A stretch of DNA of 64,000 nucleotides from Candidatus Eremiobacteria bacterium. GTDB taxonomy: Bacteria > Vulcanimicrobiota > Vulcanimicrobiia > Vulcanimicrobiales > Vulcanimicrobiaceae. Numbering within the stretch: position 1 is the stretch's first letter; each line of letters starts with the position of its first letter. A model generated the notes under the pieces. The model saw only the letters and a list, made by a program, of their open reading frames with translations. It was not told the origin of the DNA and made no database searches. Positions 2,643-9,299 of the stretch are shown here, piece after piece. Position numbers and translations under genes: made by a program. The DNA is taken from the NCBI GenBank assembly GCA_963737065.1, contig CAVTRC010000001.1, positions 1,280,001 through 1,344,000 on the forward strand. The letters run 5' to 3'.

Positions 2643-3431
2643 GTGGCACTACGGCTCGATCCGCGCAGCGGGACCAACGTTGGAGATTCATCGCAAAGCG
2701 ATGAACCGGCGTGGGATCAGAAGGAGATGCCGTTCACGGAGCACCTGCGGGAGCTCCGTACGCGTTTATTGGTTTCGCTCGGAACCGTCGGCGCAATCGC
2801 CGTCTTGCTCTTCTGGCCGTCGAAGTTTGCGATCCAATGGATGCAAGCGCAGTATCTGCACGGCACGCCGCTCAACGCGTTCGGCCTGGCCGACGTCTTG
2901 TTCACCGAGTTCAAGTTCTCCGTAATCGGCGGCGTCGTGATCGGTTTGCCGATGCTCTTCTACCAGGCGTGGATGTTCGTCGTACCGGCGATTCATCCGC
3001 GGACGCGGCGGATGGTCTACTCCTTCATCGTGCCGTCGATGCTCCTCGCGTTTGGAGGCCTTGCGTTTGCGCACTTCATCGTGATCCCGCGCGTGGTCAA
3101 TGCACTGATCAACATGACGAAAGAGATCGCGACGCCGACGTTCGGCGTCGGTCAAACGCTCGGATTTATTCTGATTCTTTTCGGCCTTTTCGCACTGATC
3201 TTCCAACTGCCCATCGTGCTGGTCGGACTTGCCCGTTTAGGAATCGTTAATGGACGTTGGCTATCGAAGTACCGTCGCCATGCGCTCTTCGCGATGGTTG
3301 TAGCAGGCGGTATCGCCGCGCCGGACGGCAATCCGATCACGATGGCGCTGCTCGCGCTTCCGATGTACGTGCTTTACGAAATCTCTATCTGGATCATTCT
3401 CTTCTTTGAACGCTCGTGGCAACAAAAGTAA
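2643..3431 (+). CDS. tatC: Twin-arginine translocase TatC
   Basis: MPFTEHLRELRTRL, FQLP, APDGNPITM...LYE; multiple TM helices. Confidence 0.93.
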   Translation: MALRLDPRSGTNVGDSSQSDEPAWDQKEMPFTEHLRELRTRLLVSLGTVGAIAVLLFWPSKFAIQWMQAQYLHGTPLNAFGLADVLFTEFKFSVIGGVVIGLPMLFYQAWMFVVPAIHPRTRRMVYSFIVPSMLLAFGGLAFAHFIVIPRVVNALINMTKEIATPTFGVGQTLGFILILFGLFALIFQLPIVLVGLARLGIVNGRWLSKYRRHALFAMVVAGGIAAPDGNPITMALLALPMYVLYEISIWIILFFERSWQQK

Positions 3432-4802
3432 TCGCGCTCTACGATGACTTCACCCGCACGTTCGGCAACGTGCTCTTTGCCGTATTGCTGTTCGTCGTTT
3501 GGGGCATTCTCACGTTGATCGGTGTGATCGTCGATCAAGGCAAAGATCCGACCACGTACTTCAATACGTATCCGGCGGCACTCGCTCGCGCGATTTTACG
3601 CCTCGGTTTTGATAACATCTACCACTCGCCATGGTACGTGGGGATCGTCGGACTCATCCTGATTTCGCTCGCCGTCTGCACGTTCAAACGCGTCATTCCC
3701 GCGCGGTTGCCGCCGTTGCGCCCCGTGAAGATCGACAAGATTCCGCTCAACGGATCAATCGTGGTTCGTGGCGACGAGACGAACGTACGCGCCCGCGTCG
3801 AGTCGTTCTTTCGTTCGCGCGGCTGGAACGTACGCAAGCGCGAATTCGGCGGAACGGAGTGGAGTTTTGCCGACAAGCACAACTGGGCACGGCGCGGAGT
3901 TTTGATTGCGCACCTCGGATTCACGATTATCGCGGCCGGCACGACGGTCTACTGGGCGCGCGGATTCTCCGGCGAAGCCGCCGTCGTTACCGGCGAAACC
4001 GTGCGCATTGCGAAGACGAATGCGATTCTCACCCTTAACTCGTTCCGCTATAAGATCACGCCGATTCTCACAAAGAGCGGCATGGTCTATCAGCCGACCG
4101 ACTACGTTTCGAACGTCACGGTCACGGGACGTGACGGCGTGCCGAAGCACATGGTAGTGCGCGTCAATCACCCGATCGACGTCGACGGCACGTTGTACTA
4201 TCAGGCGAGTTACGGCTTTGCGATGACGATGCGCTTCACGCACGAGGGCGTCAACGTTCCGTCGCTCTCGGACCACGTGTTCAAAGAAGGCGACGCATTC
4301 AACATTCCGGGCACGCGCAACACGTTGCTCTACGACCGCTTCGTGCCAACGGTCGACAAGCAGAGCGGCATGCCTGCCGCCGATCCGCGCGTGAACGATC
4401 CCGCGGTTATTCTGAGCGTCCAGCAGAGCGGCGAAACGGCCGGCTCGGCGCTCGTCCCCCTGCACACCTCGATCGATCTGGGCAACGGCTGGCGCGTCAC
4501 GCCGGAGCGCTACATCTTGTATAGCGGGTTTCAGTACCGGTACGACCCCGGTATCCCGCTTGGTCGGAATCGGTGCGCTCGTCTTGCTCGCCGGACTTAT
4601 TACGTCGTTCTACTTCCTGCCCGCGCGTCTCTACGTCCGCGTCGACCCCTCGGGAGCCGGTTGTACCGTTGGCGTAGCTGCGACGACCGTGAAGGGGTAC
4701 GATATTTTCGCAGGACAGTTCCAAGCGCTTCTGCACGACTTGCAGAATACGATGGAGCCGCCCGGGACCAATCCTCACTTGCAAGCAGCGGAGGCCTACT
4801 GA
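3416..4802 (+). CDS. resB: Cytochrome c biogenesis protein ResB/Ccs1, +1 frameshift near 4560
   Basis: FDNIYHSPWY, LIAHLG, VNHP...YQASYG, YDPG; the last TM helix continues in ORF 4560-4802. Confidence 0.85.
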
Positions 4803-4806
4803 CGAA

Positions 4807-5814
4807 GTGACCGGACATTTGCAAGCCGACGAACTGCTCATGATCGTCGCGATCGCAAGTTACGTGGTAGGCGGTATCGCGCTGCTTATCTATTTCTTCT
4901 CGCGCGAAGCGTGGTTACGTAATCTCGGCGCGCCGCTCGCGATCGTCGGATGCGTCGCGCAATTTGCGCAGCTGGTCGTGCGCTTCGAACTCACCGGCAT
5001 TTGGCCGCTGCTCAATCTCTACGGGTCGCTTTCGCTCTTCGCGGCGATGTCGGTCGCGATCTTCATCGGTTTTGCCATCCGCTACAAGCTGTGGTTCGCC
5101 GGCGGATTCGTGCTTGCAATCGCGGCGATCTTTCTTGCGTACGGGGTGACGTGGAATGAAGGCACGATGCCGCCCGTTCCGTCACTGCAGTCGTACTGGG
5201 CGAAAATTCACGTGCCGATCGTCGTGTCGTCGTACGCGGCGTTTCTCGTCGCCTTCGTCTTCTCGTGCATATATTTGATCAAGTACTACGCCGAACAGAA
5301 GATCGGTGAGAAGAGCGTTATCGCCTCCGCAGTATCCGATATCGGAAATATTGCGGTACGCACGACGTTCCAGTATCAGGCAGCCGCTGCTGCCGTTCGG
5401 GATGCCGGACTCGCGCGTGCCACCGCGCTATCGGGCGCCACGCCGCAAGTCGCCGCTGCGGCCGCCGCCGGAAACCCGCTCGCGCAATGGCTCGAAACAT
5501 TGCCGTCGCTCGCGCAACTCGACGTCATTGTGTATCGCGCGGTCGCAATCGGTCTGCCCTTGATCTCGCTCGGGATCATCACCGGCGCGGCGTGGGCAAA
5601 AGAAGCGTGGGGCGCGTATTGGCAGTGGGATCCAAAAGAAACCGCCGCTCTCTGTACGTGGATCATCTATCTCGCGTACATGCATCTGCACACGCGCAAC
5701 GCATGGCGCGGATTACGCACGAATTGGGTGAGCGTCGGCGGATTCGTGCTCGTGATCTTCACCTACCTCGGCGTCAACATCTGGATAAGCGGTTTGCACA
5801 GTTACAAAATGTAG
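4807..5814 (+). CDS. ccsA: Cytochrome c biogenesis protein CcsA/ResC (system II)
   Basis: WWD domain WAKEAWGAYWQWDPKE, LQSYWAKIHV, C-terminal GLHSY. Confidence 0.93.
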   Translation: MTGHLQADELLMIVAIASYVVGGIALLIYFFSREAWLRNLGAPLAIVGCVAQFAQLVVRFELTGIWPLLNLYGSLSLFAAMSVAIFIGFAIRYKLWFAGGFVLAIAAIFLAYGVTWNEGTMPPVPSLQSYWAKIHVPIVVSSYAAFLVAFVFSCIYLIKYYAEQKIGEKSVIASAVSDIGNIAVRTTFQYQAAAAAVRDAGLARATALSGATPQVAAAAAAGNPLAQWLETLPSLAQLDVIVYRAVAIGLPLISLGIITGAAWAKEAWGAYWQWDPKETAALCTWIIYLAYMHLHTRNAWRGLRTNWVSVGGFVLVIFTYLGVNIWISGLHSYKM

Positions 5815-6235
5815 CGCCCGGCTGCGTCTCGGTGCTGGATGACAACGGCTGGGGCTTTGGCTGACGCACCACGTTACGTTCCTCGGTGACGGCGGCGGCA
5901 AGATCGGGGCGTCAACGCCGCCAGTTGATAAGTTGCAACGCCGCGCTGATGAAATGCGTCTGCCGTTATGAGCCTGAGGCCGCGTGGCAGAATCAGCGTT
6001 GGGCCTTTCGTTGTGAGCGGCGCATTGACGGGACACGCGGTGTGCAAGCGCGAGGAGAGCCACGCACGATGAGGATGCTGATGCGGTCGGGACCGTTCGA
6101 ACACGAAAACGCTCGAGATTCCCAATGTATATTTCATAGTCTCAGGTCGCCAAATGTAGACACTTCTTTTAAGGTGCCTACTGGAGTTGACCCGCTTCCG
6201 TGGAGACTTTCAATCTTACAGAGAAAGGTCTCCAT

Positions 6236-6547
6236 ATGGCAAAGCGCCCCACCTATCCGCCGGAATTCCGGCATAGGATCCTCGAGCTGGTCGGTTCCGG
6301 CCGCAGCGTGAACTCCGTCGCGGTCGAATTTCAAGTTGCTCGACAATCGATCGTGAACTGGCTGAAGCAAGACGACGTTGATACGGGCCGCCGCGACGGC
6401 GGTTTAACAACGGACGAACGCAAAGAACTTGCGGCACTGCGCCGTGAAAATAAGCGCTTAAAACTCGAAGCGGAAATCCTGTCAAAAGCCGCGGCCTGGT
6501 TCGCTCGGGAAACGCACGCGGTTCCGAGCAAATCTTCGGATTCATAA
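6236..6547 (+). CDS. IS3 transposase OrfA (HTH)
   Basis: YPPEFR...SVAVEFQV..SIVNWLKQ, coiled coil ELAALRRENKRLKLEAEILSKAAAWFA. Confidence 0.9.
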   Translation: MAKRPTYPPEFRHRILELVGSGRSVNSVAVEFQVARQSIVNWLKQDDVDTGRRDGGLTTDERKELAALRRENKRLKLEAEILSKAAAWFARETHAVPSKSSDS

Positions 6548-6949
6548 AGGCGTACCAGGCCAACTATACGATTACGATGCTGTGTCATGTGCTCGACGTT
6601 TCCCCGAGCGGATACTACGCGTGGTGCAACCGATCGCCGTCGAAGCGCCGCCAAGACGACATCGTTCTCGGCGATCAGATCGATGCGTTCTATCGGAAGT
6701 CGTATGGTATTTACGGCCGTCCGCGCTTGCATGCGGATCTTCGCGAAGCCGGCATTCGGATCTCCGGAAAGCGCCTTGCGCGGTTGATGCGCGAACGCGG
6801 AATTGTCGGCGTTTCTCGGAGGAAATCCACAGTCACGACCATACGCGATCGGGATTCGCGTCCGGCGCCTGATCTCGTTGAGCGCAATTTCCAAGCCGAT
6901 GGGCCTGACCAGCTTTGGGTCGCTGACATTACGTTGTATCTTGGACCGA

Positions 6950-7130
6950 CGCGGCGAACAACCGTCGCGAGGTGGGGATAGCACGGATATTACGTGAGGC
7001 AGCAACAGCCTGAGATGTAGATGTCGCACCCCACTGCATTTTCAGCGCCGCAGGAGATCGGACGATAGCAAAGACGTTGCTCATCGAGCGAAGAGTCTGG
7101 ATTTACAAGGCTGATCCGCGGGTGGCGCGA
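6950..7130 (+). ncRNA. Putative IS110 bridge RNA (target-binding and donor-binding loops)
   Basis: Stem GTGGGG/CCCCAC encloses ATATTACGT (6987-6995) and GATGT (7014-7018), matching the insertion site. Stem GATCGG/CTGATC encloses ACGATAGC (7062-7069) and TACAAG (7104-7109), matching the element ends. Transcript ends are estimated. Confidence 0.8.
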
Positions 7131-7155
7131 TTTCGATTTGAAATGTGGAGGCGCT

Positions 7156-8139
7156 GTGAAATTCATCGGGATTGATGTCTCTCGTGATAAGCTCGACTGC
7201 GCGGTAGTCGACGACTGTGGAACCGTTATTCAACGATCGCGAGCATTTAAGAATAGCGCTGATGGCGTCGATGCGCTCCTGAAGTGGGTCGGAAAAATCG
7301 CCAGTAAGGGGCACGCGCGGTTTGTCATCGAGGCAACGGCAGCCTATCACGAGATGGCCTCACTGCGCCTTGCGAAGACCGGTGAATTCGTCGCAATCGT
7401 GAACCCATTTCACGTGCGTTCTTTAGCGCGCGGGCTAGCCATGCTCAGTAAGAGTGACGCGATTGATGCGCTCGTCCTTGCGCAATATGGGCGTCTTGCA
7501 AAGCTGCGCCGATGGGTACCGCCAGCTGCGCAGCTTGTTGATATTCAGGCTCTTTTGCTGCGGCTCGATGCGATTGAATCAGACCTCTTGCGTGAGCAGA
7601 ATCGTCGCGAGCAGGCTGCAGCCAGAGAATCCGCGACGCTTGTGATTGGCTCGATTGACGCGAGTATCAAATTCCTAAAGCGTCAGCGGAAAAGCATCGA
7701 ATTCGCGATCAGCAAATCGATTGAAACCGCTCCGGGTATCGCGGATGACGTCGAGCGCTTACGCTCGATCCCCGGCGTGGGCGAAAAGACAGCAAACCGC
7801 ATGGCGACCATGCTGCGTATGCACGACTTTAAGTCGGCGCGTGAAGTGGCCGCCTTCTGCGGCCTCGTTCCGGTCGAGCATAAATCCGGAACGAGCGTCT
7901 ATCGCAAGCCGCGACTCTCGAAGGCCGGCAACCCAAGAATGCGGGCGGCTCTATACATGGTTGCAGTCGTCGCCATGCGGTTGAACCCCGACGTCAAGGC
8001 GCTTTACGATCGACTCGTAGGACGCGGTAAAGCAAAAATGGCGGCTCTCGGTGCGTGCATGCGTAAGATCGTTCAGATATGTTTCGGCGTACTGAAGTCG
8101 GGAAAAACGTACGCCCCGCAGGCTGTTGTTAGAGCTTGA
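7156..8139 (+). CDS. IS110-family DEDD recombinase/transposase
   Basis: GTG start with GGAGG RBS; GIDVS, IEAT, KSDAID (D-E-D-D); SIPGVG, GLVP..HKSGTS (catalytic Ser), GNPRMRAALY. Confidence 0.95.
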   Translation: MKFIGIDVSRDKLDCAVVDDCGTVIQRSRAFKNSADGVDALLKWVGKIASKGHARFVIEATAAYHEMASLRLAKTGEFVAIVNPFHVRSLARGLAMLSKSDAIDALVLAQYGRLAKLRRWVPPAAQLVDIQALLLRLDAIESDLLREQNRREQAAARESATLVIGSIDASIKFLKRQRKSIEFAISKSIETAPGIADDVERLRSIPGVGEKTANRMATMLRMHDFKSAREVAAFCGLVPVEHKSGTSVYRKPRLSKAGNPRMRAALYMVAVVAMRLNPDVKALYDRLVGRGKAKMAALGACMRKIVQICFGVLKSGKTYAPQAVVRA

Positions 8140-8141
8140 CT
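8136..8141 (+). promoter_or_regulatory. -35 box (TTGACT) of the IS110 circle-junction promoter; pairs with -10 TATCTT at 6937-6942 after excision
   Basis: Joining the right end to the left end gives TTGACT-17 nt-TATCTT directly upstream of the putative bridge RNA. Confidence 0.75.
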
Positions 8142-8720
8142 TCCCAGACGATATCTATATCCCGACCTGGGGTGGATTCGTATACCTCGCAATTGTGCTC
8201 GATGCTTACAGTCGTCGAGTCGTCGGCTGGGCACCTGCTAATCACTTACGCACCGAACTTGTTCTGCAAGCGCTCAACTCAGCAATCTATCGGCGACGGC
8301 CGGAAAACGTTATCCATCACTCGGATCAAGGCTGCCAATACACCTCAATCGCCTTCGGCCTGCGGTGTCGCGAAGCCAAGGTACGCCCGTCGATGGGTTC
8401 AGTCGGTGATGCATACGATAACGCGATGTGCGAGAGTTTCAACGCAACGCTCGAATGCGAACTACTTGCGCGAAGTTCGTTCAAAAGCCAGCGTGAAGCT
8501 GAACAAGCGATCTTCGCGTATATCGAGGGTTTCTACAACCCGCATCGCCGGCATTCCGCAATCGGGTATCTCTCACCGAACAACTTCGAGCGCCGCATGA
8601 GTCATGCCGCTTGATGTCCAAGTCGCATTTCTCCGCGAAAGCGGGTCAACTCCAGTGGGCATCGGGCGGCGTTGTTGGTCAGCAAACCAATTACACCAAC
8701 GAAGGGGCGCTAGTTAAGGG

Positions 8721-9299
8721 ATGTTAGTTCTCGTTTTTCCGTTTATTCTCGCAACGCAACTACTTGCGCAAGCTACTCCAGAACCGTGGGCACATTACGA
8801 ATTGGCAGGAAGCTCCCTTAGGCAATTCGCTGCCAGCTATGACGCAGAAGTGCGCGGCAAGGAATCGCAATTTGCTGGTACAATCGTCCGCATCTCTAAA
8901 CTTGTTGACGGCGGAAGTCAGGTGACATTCGAGCGAAAAACCGGACAGCCAATGGGCTTTCGAGTTACGCCGGATAATAAGGTCGTTGCTGCATCTGCGT
9001 TGCAAGAATCAAATACAGAAGGCGTCCCGTTTGCGGACGCCCGCGCTATGGCGATCACCTACGACGCCTGGAAGGCGGGTCAAGTTAAAATTCCAGAGTC
9101 GGCCGCTGCGTTCAACGCAGATCGGTTCAGCGTCAGCGAACGCGGAATATTCAATTATCCCACGGGCTTGCCCGGATACTACGTAACATTCCAGCCCATC
9201 GGCAACGTCCCAAAAGTGGGGCGGGGGTGTCCTCCAACCCGAAACTATCGAGTCGATCCGAACACGTGGCAGGTGACCGAAGAACCAATTATTTGCTAA
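8721..9299 (+). CDS. Hypothetical secreted protein
   Basis: 192-aa ORF with signal-peptide-like N-terminus, two C-terminal Cys, visibly lower GC than the flanks; no family recognised. Confidence 0.6.
   Translation: MLVLVFPFILATQLLAQATPEPWAHYELAGSSLRQFAASYDAEVRGKESQFAGTIVRISKLVDGGSQVTFERKTGQPMGFRVTPDNKVVAASALQESNTEGVPFADARAMAITYDAWKAGQVKIPESAAAFNADRFSVSERGIFNYPTGLPGYYVTFQPIGNVPKVGRGCPPTRNYRVDPNTWQVTEEPIIC

Follow-up and report, generated by a model that had tools for sequence, protein, structure and literature searches.

What directs an IS110-family insertion sequence (IS) into the catalytic codons of another element's transposase gene? The question is raised by a locus within a 64,000-nucleotide stretch of Candidatus Eremiobacteria bacterium DNA (GenBank assembly GCA_963737065.1, contig CAVTRC010000001.1, positions 1,280,001 to 1,344,000 of the forward strand), hereafter the window, in which a 1222-bp IS621-like IS110 element splits the orfB transposase gene of an IS3-family element. 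A preliminary description of the locus had proposed that the inserted element is a parasite of IS3 elements that uses a recurring catalytic motif as its landing site. The flanks of the element's closest relatives support that proposal, and homology to IS621 together with sequence covariation argues for guidance by RNA. As set out below, the element is very probably RNA-guided and aimed at the catalytic codons of IS3 transposases. The host IS3 and all parts of the IS110 element lie on the + strand.

Insertion site in the IS3 transposase gene

The host IS3 element spans positions 6182..8654, an extent set by the homology limits between two composite IS3::IS110 copies in the genome. It has all the features of its family: an orfA with a helix-turn-helix (HTH) domain (6236..6547; Pfam HTH_Tnp_1, E 4e-10), an orfB with HTH_21 and an rve core of the DDE type, and visible terminal inverted repeats. 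The IS110 element (6935..8156) divides orfB into a 5' part (6577..6934; HTH_21, E 7e-16), whose last codons are Asp-Ile-Thr followed by the first base of a Tyr codon, and a 3' part (8157..8614) that carries most of the catalytic core (rve, 8e-19; rve_3; rve_2). The interrupted frame, an open reading frame (ORF) at 6577..6981, continues into the IS110 element and ends at a stop codon at 6979-6981.

Joining the left flank, which ends at 6934, to the right flank, which begins at 8157, yields an in-frame Ala-Asp-Ile-Thr-Tyr-Ile-Pro-Thr-Trp sequence. Uninterrupted relatives of the IS3 element are present in 11 of 150 family-mate genomes, and in these the two orfB arms directly abut, so the insertion is exact, with no bases duplicated or lost. 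The empty-site motif Asp-Ile-Thr-Tyr-Ile/Val-Pro-Thr occurs in nine of the 11 loci, the other two having a stop at the Tyr and a frame change, respectively; one of the 11 loci (L101) belongs to a genome flagged as unpublished. Both the joined flanks and the uninterrupted relatives thereby confirm the original observation that removal of the insert restores Asp-Ile-Thr-Tyr-Ile in orfB.

Aligned with avian sarcoma virus integrase, the motif's Asp falls on the first catalytic Asp of that enzyme, and the downstream Asp and Glu find their counterparts too (E 0.0016). The Pfam rve match opens at profile position 18, right past the insertion point. By these alignments, the insertion site is formed by the codons of the first catalytic Asp of IS3 orfB.

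The limits of the IS110 element are supported by its two identical genomic copies, by ends conserved in relatives and by the empty sites. They are ambiguous by one base because the same T closes both junction cores (6933-6934 and 8155-8156). Neither inverted repeats nor a target duplication accompany the element.

The inserted element and its recombinase

The bridge recombinase gene (7156..8139; 327 amino acids) starts with GTG, has a GGAGG-type ribosome site 4 nt before the start codon and is preceded by a non-coding region of 221 nt. The protein matches Pfam DEDD_Tnp_IS110 (1e-22) and Transposase_20 (2e-25), with PF01548 and PF02371 both exceeding their cut-offs. The whole protein aligns with the solved recombinases of ISCro4 (5e-51) and IS621 (7e-48) from the Protein Data Bank, to which it is closest, in agreement with the IS110-family membership assigned at the outset. 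Residues Asp7, Glu59, Asp101, Asp104 and Ser244 align with the catalytic residues of IS621 as named by Hiraizumi et al. (PMC11208158).

Two hexamers, read by eye, may constitute a promoter at the joined ends of the element. The putative -35 hexamer (8136..8141) overlaps the recombinase stop codon, the putative -10 hexamer (6937..6942) lies in the left end, which like the right end is conserved in relatives, and the two would be 17 nt apart if the ends were joined. Homologous right ends carry a consensus-like -35 hexamer at an equal distance. In IS621, a -35 in the right end and a -10 in the left end are described as forming a promoter on joining of the ends (PMC11208160, PMC11208158). By analogy, the putative junction promoter would work only in a circular form, where the two ends meet. 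Judged by its sequence, the element is an intact IS621-type IS110 insertion sequence and a mechanistically ordinary member of the IS621-like group.

Bridge RNA structure

A consensus structure was derived from an alignment of 29 distinct upstream regions. It comprises a 5' hairpin and two modules, in each of which an internal loop separates the outer stem from the inner hairpin. Compensatory changes occur at 22 of the 32 consensus pairs, and paired cells amount to 97.1%, compared with 84.3% in shuffles (none of 500 reached the observed value) and 35-48% when the partners were slid.

The 5' stem-loop of this element (6950..6969) corresponds to consensus helix 1, in which six of seven pairs show a compensatory change, and is also present in the single-sequence fold. 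The target-binding loop module (6969..7037; consensus helices 2-4) has an outer stem formed by 6969-6977 and 7029-7037 and an inner hairpin formed by 6997-7000 and 7008-7011. Between them lie the left target guide (6987..6995; 7 nt plus two core-reading nt, alignment columns 61-69) and the right target guide (7014..7020; 5 nt plus two core-reading nt, alignment columns 89-95). The donor-binding loop module (7056..7116; consensus helices 5-7), closed by an outer stem of 7056-7059 and 7113-7116, contains a left donor guide (7061..7069) that matches the right end of the element and a right donor guide (7104..7109) that matches its left end. All four guide segments fall in unpaired loop columns of the consensus.

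The preliminary description had placed the target guides at 6987-6995 and 7014-7018 and the donor segments in a second stem, and they were found as described, inside 6969-6977 / 7029-7037 and 7056-7059 / 7113-7116, respectively. Its expectation that the guides occupy internal loops was borne out, in a two-loop RNA that is supported by covariation over the 29 upstream regions.

Pairing of the guides with target and donor

The guides pair with the element's own flanks at 14 of 14 positions. The left guide contributes eight Watson-Crick pairs and one wobble pair of nine, and the right guide contributes four and one of five, so that the two apparent mismatches are G:U-compatible as first proposed, with 12 Watson-Crick and two wobble pairs in all. 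The second base of the junction core is T on both sides, and the first base is G at the left junction and C at the right. On the donor side, this element and its relative L026 both differ from the rest of their clade by a G-to-A change in the right end, and the left donor guide of each is changed likewise.

Neither the actual nor the ideal 14-mer is matched to within one mismatch anywhere on the two strands of the 3.08-Mb genome. With T required at the second core position, a single further genomic site is fully pairable, but only nine of its pairs are Watson-Crick, and another 67 sites pair at 13 positions. When the guides were matched to the uninterrupted IS3 relatives, the best site in each ~3.3-kb locus was the Asp-Ile-Thr-Tyr-Ile/Val codons in nine of the 11 loci, and two of these nine sites equal the occupied site.

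A clade of relatives at transposase codons

Relatives were gathered at 12 loci of a genome set with a single representative per species and at 68 loci on metagenome contigs. Those with at least about 43% protein identity share the left and right ends. In a quick maximum-likelihood tree of 38 recombinases, a clade of 13 members, including this element, is set apart by a long branch with a Shimodaira-Hasegawa-like approximate likelihood ratio test (SH-aLRT) value of 100. The clade relatives are 54-74% identical and come from metagenome-assembled genomes (MAGs) and metagenomes; the four MAGs holding L014-L016 and L018 have one copy each.

Targets were labelled by hand from the flanks. Ten of the 13 clade members (this element, L026, L028, L014, L031, L015, L016, L029, L030 and L036) lie in IS3 orfB at Asp-x-Thr / Tyr, with guides that change with their targets; this is the outcome that had been predicted for homologues, namely insertion at Asp-x-Thr-Tyr-Ile/Val codons of IS3 orfB. 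The others are in an IS6-type transposase gene (L018), in a DUF932 gene at Arg-Tyr-Thr / Tyr-Ile (L040) and in a gene without a Pfam match at Asp-Tyr-Thr / Tyr-Val (L033). Every element found at an x-Thr-Tyr site belongs to the clade, and none of the 25 rows outside it is at such a site. In Pfam searches of the clade flanks, from which L028 was excluded, rve was found in all seven right flanks tested and HTH_21 in all three left flanks tested. The host orfB genes represent different IS3 subgroups and are widely diverged, with Ile, Phe or Met after the Asp.

Several members show features of their own. The right flank of L018 matches DDE_Tnp_IS240 from profile position 20, nine codons past the junction. 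The L033 guide matches the L015 IS3 site at all 12 positions and 11 of those at its own (L033 1250-1290, 2490-2520). L033 therefore looks like a natural off-target insertion, one base away from an IS3-type Asp-Phe-Thr-Tyr-Val target, as nucleotide-level RNA guidance predicts. In L040 (290-310, 1630-1650), the left guide is altered at several positions towards the DUF932 site, which may represent a natural change of target to a different gene that is typical of mobile elements. The left junction of L014 (130-145) has one extra base relative to other clade members, either from an assembly error in a T run or from an imprecise junction. The right flank of L016 (2540-2680) does not extend the orfB of the left flank; a deletion, a rearrangement or a chimeric contig may be responsible.

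Outside the clade, both the guides and the flanks are C-rich sequences with CCT at the end. Three elements on metagenome contigs (L034, L052 and L053) have the same upstream region, and two of the three also have the same recombinase. Their C-rich flanks are similar without being the same, a sign that one repeat-targeting element has inserted several times recently.

Covariation of guides with targets

Covariation was scored at the 12 non-core positions in 26 of the 29 elements, three having been dropped for want of a right flank. L014 was shifted by one base owing to its extra junction base, and L022, L037 and L045 were retained despite low scores that stem from end or alignment offsets. The mean identity of guide and target was 9.96 of 12 for cognate pairs and 5.05 of 12 for non-cognate pairs. 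In none of 20,000 permutations was the observed sum of matches reached, whether over all elements, within the 10 x-Thr-Tyr clade rows, where the observed sum was 108 against a permutation mean of 91.4, or within the other 16 rows. Where the target reads Asp-Phe-Thr or Asp-Met-Thr, the guide has changed to suit.

The guides of the 10 clade rows also reflect the codons that they read. Guide positions without a Watson-Crick partner number 18 of 140, and 15 of the 18 are at third codon positions. The first core base is itself the wobble base of the Thr codon. The left junction, which retains the first core base of the target, has G, C or A there, whereas the right junction reads CT in all 10 rows. 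At this position the left guide has G or U and the right guide has a G that reads C, with the result that at least one of the two guides pairs with the first core base of the target in 10 of 10 rows. According to Hiraizumi et al. (PMC11208158), the first core base of IS621 is the less conserved one, GT, AT and TT cores work, and the top strands are cut 3' of the core. The junction cores seen here fit such a top-strand exchange 3' of the core.

Two composite copies in the genome

The IS110 element is present in the genome as two copies that are 100% identical over 1222 nt. The second copy forms part of another IS3::IS110 composite (C1:65848-68320), where it occupies the identical position in a further copy of the IS3. 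The genome has no full-length copy of this IS3 besides these two, and since the IS110 element occupies both, no empty target is left. The composites are identical over 6344-8233 and differ at 8234, 8282 and 8437 and at 15 positions within a 52-nt patch of orfA (6292-6343). When the patch is excluded, there are three differences in ~1200 nt of IS3 and none in the 1222 nt of IS110, a contrast with a chance probability of ~0.12.

The patch itself (6292-6343 versus C1:65958-66009) resembles a gene-conversion mosaic with a diverged IS3, and an IS3 fragment of 112 nt, 88% identical, is found at C1:322005-322117. The second IS3 copy (L002 745-760, 3205-3220) interrupts an open reading frame and is flanked by a 3-bp direct repeat. 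A transposase-like ORF starts ~400 bp downstream of it (L002 3590-4222), which makes the region an IS cluster.

Alternative explanations

A number of observations weigh against RNA-guided targeting of IS3 catalytic codons as the explanation of this locus. Guides track targets imperfectly: the guide of this element is the same as that of L026 despite their differing targets, and it is a slightly closer match to the L026 and L030 targets (11 of 12) than to its own (10 of 12). The clade rests on a quick version of the tree, three of its 13 members are outside IS3, L016 is IS3-like on the left flank only, and the L018 contig has a right flank only. The lineage is also rare. The IS110 element was detected in none of the 150 family-mates (E 1e-60), and in the Burkholderiales-type order of G151 two of 401 genomes matched (E 1e-100), these being G151 itself and L112; among 72,556 plasmids, 1234 records match and none exceeds 60% identity, the best reaching 42.8%. 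The single-sequence fold of 6935-7160 is no better than shuffles (z -1.30; 24 of 200 fold equally well), its minimum-energy structure is without the target-loop stem, and a scan of 6000-8800 on both strands against Rfam 15 gave no family match at E up to 1. As the single-sequence fold is uninformative alone, the RNA structure rests on the comparative data. Finally, the two genomic copies do not count as independent evidence. A single composite may have been duplicated whole, which would look the same as two separate insertions, so the genome yields one certain insertion event.

The last point bears on the possibility that the shared site reflects inheritance, an ancestral IS3 having been hit once and the composite having spread and diverged as a unit with its guide matches as leftovers. 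Such a history would account for the identity of the two genomic composites over the whole IS110 and 590 nt of adjoining IS3, and for the nearest relative, L026 (70% identity), residing in the most similar IS3 with the same left guide. However, the hosts within the clade comprise different IS3 subgroups with very different OrfB proteins as well as an IS6 transposase gene, a DUF932 gene and an unrelated gene, and the guides change along with the targets. Uninterrupted related IS3 elements occur in 11 of 150 family-mates and the IS110 element in none, and a composite with a broken orfB would be unable to move alone. Common descent of the site is accordingly regarded as quite improbable. A choice of site by the recombinase protein itself, with the upstream region as a mere leader or promoter and the complementarity as a by-product, is harder still to credit. 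The unremarkable single-sequence fold would agree with it, but the loop segments covary with the flanks position by position while the recombinases are conserved, the stems show compensatory changes, and an RNA mechanism has been demonstrated in the homologous IS621 (PMC11208160, PMC11208158).

A different concern is that the insertion was once RNA-guided and that the copies in this genome are relics that no longer move. Full identity of the two copies over 1222 nt, an open reading frame with all catalytic residues aligned, and intact ends, putative promoter halves and RNA stems argue against this, and the element may be currently active. On the other hand, there are two copies only, in the sole two full-length IS3 copies of a genome that has no empty target, and the guide has two wobble positions against this IS3. 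Loss of mobility is considered unlikely, and RNA-guided insertion at the IS3 catalytic codons is retained as the explanation of the locus.

Comparison with known systems

The bridge RNA and the mechanism of IS621, whose core is CT, have been established biochemically and structurally (PMC11208160, PMC11208158), and its left guide reads the bottom strand of the target whereas the right guide reads the top strand (PMC11208160). The present element shares with IS621 and ISCro4 a two-domain recombinase of similar size (327 versus ~326 amino acids) with aligned catalytic residues, an upstream non-coding region with a 5' hairpin followed by target and donor loops, the same reading of strands by the guides, a T as second core base, the placement of the -35 and -10 hexamers in the right and left ends, respectively, and an unduplicated target. 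The proteins differ, with matches of 167-177 bits and aligned stretches that are ~35-40% identical by eye. The left guide here has G or U at the first core position rather than the C of the donor, and the targets have G, C or A. In contrast to the natural target of IS621, which is described as a repetitive extragenic sequence (PMC11208160), that of the present lineage consists of protein-coding transposase codons. An E. coli plasmid relative considered as a candidate for IS621 was rejected, as it scored 171 bits to the solved chain; no DNA-level match to the element was found in E. coli genomes.

Targeting of transposase codons has a precedent in ISEc21, a seekRNA-guided element that Siddiquee et al. 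(2024, PMC11187229) describe as targeting the codons that surround the second DDE Asp in certain IS3 members. The preliminary description had named ISEc21 as directed to IS3 at a different Asp, which is right, the published target being the second. Like the present element, ISEc21 is an RNA-guided member of the IS110 family with an upstream non-coding region and a target in the catalytic codons of IS3 transposases. By the published description, it differs in being directed to the second Asp rather than the first, and in having a transposase of 358 amino acids, which belongs to a subgroup of 345-385 amino acids distinct from the IS621/Piv group of 315-330 amino acids, whereas the present recombinase has 327 (PMC11187229). 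Because targeting of transposase codons has already been published for ISEc21, only the present target and lineage are new. In the accessible text of the IS110 and bridge-RNA literature, the supplementary tables of the bridge-RNA papers aside, no description of a first-Asp IS3 target was found. What is new here is the first-Asp target together with the clade-wide adherence to it across host IS subgroups and phyla.

IS4321 and IS5075 of the IS1111 group also resemble the present element in being DEDD-transposase elements that land specifically inside another mobile element, as Partridge and Hall reportedly observed in 2003. Their guide RNA maps downstream of the gene, and their inverted repeats are subterminal.

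The sister groups of the clade (L017, L032-L050 and others), as well as ISPpu9 and ISPpu10, have conserved ends and the RNA scaffold in common with the present element. The sister groups differ in their guides and flanks, which are C-rich, repeat-like and end in CCT instead of corresponding to transposase codons. ISPpu9 and ISPpu10 have been reported in repetitive extragenic sequences.

Proposed mechanism and implications

By analogy to IS621, the element would excise as a circle, and the promoter formed at the joined ends would transcribe, from the left end, a bridge RNA of ~170 nt along with the mRNA of the recombinase. In the presumed complex of this RNA with the recombinase, one loop would pair with both strands of the target and the other with the joined ends of the element, and the DEDD/Ser recombinase would swap strands beside a two-base core with T in the second position. 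The target loop appears to be written for the Asp-Ile-Thr-Tyr-Ile codons that hold the first catalytic Asp of IS3 OrfB. A match to these codons would dictate a fixed orientation, co-directional with orfB, and insertion would therefore split the transposase gene and inactivate the host IS. Across the lineage, the guides follow codon variants of the motif in different IS3 subgroups and probably also in an IS6 transposase gene. The lineage would thus acquire a landing site that is non-essential, present in multiple copies and horizontally travelling.

It is conceivable, though on present evidence doubtful, that the whole lineage consists of hyperparasites of DDE transposons, for which the protein-constrained Asp-x-Thr-Tyr codons of the catalytic site serve as a landing pad, carried from phylum to phylum by its hosts. 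If so, the guide would be tuned to codon degeneracy, and the split reading of the first core base would let any Thr codon pair with at least one guide. Co-orientation with orfB would allow the promoter of the host IS to transcribe the element, while the host transposase would be silenced and a truncated, DNA-binding OrfB fragment left behind.

RNA-guided targeting of the first catalytic Asp would extend the use of transposase codons beyond ISEc21 and would represent convergence, the habit having emerged a second time, in the IS621-like group and at the opposite end of the catalytic core. It would have been kept through the diversification of the clade, in Eremiobacterota-like and Burkholderiales-like genomes. 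The clade also offers a natural record of reprogramming in the form of at least 10 guide/target pairs that differ mostly at synonymous positions, and the wobble pairs and first-core-base mismatches that are naturally tolerated may inform design rules for bridge recombinases. From an ecological standpoint, one IS family would limit another. A compact recombinase of this kind might be directed against the IS3 or IS6 elements of production strains.

Surroundings of the composite element

The flanks of the IS3 copy in the window (6173-6184, 8652-8663) are without a 3-bp direct repeat, which suggests a later rearrangement at one end. Upstream of the IS3, two long ORFs at 3416-5814 resemble, by their translations, ResB- and CcsA-type cytochrome c biogenesis proteins, and the second of them has a Trp-rich motif.

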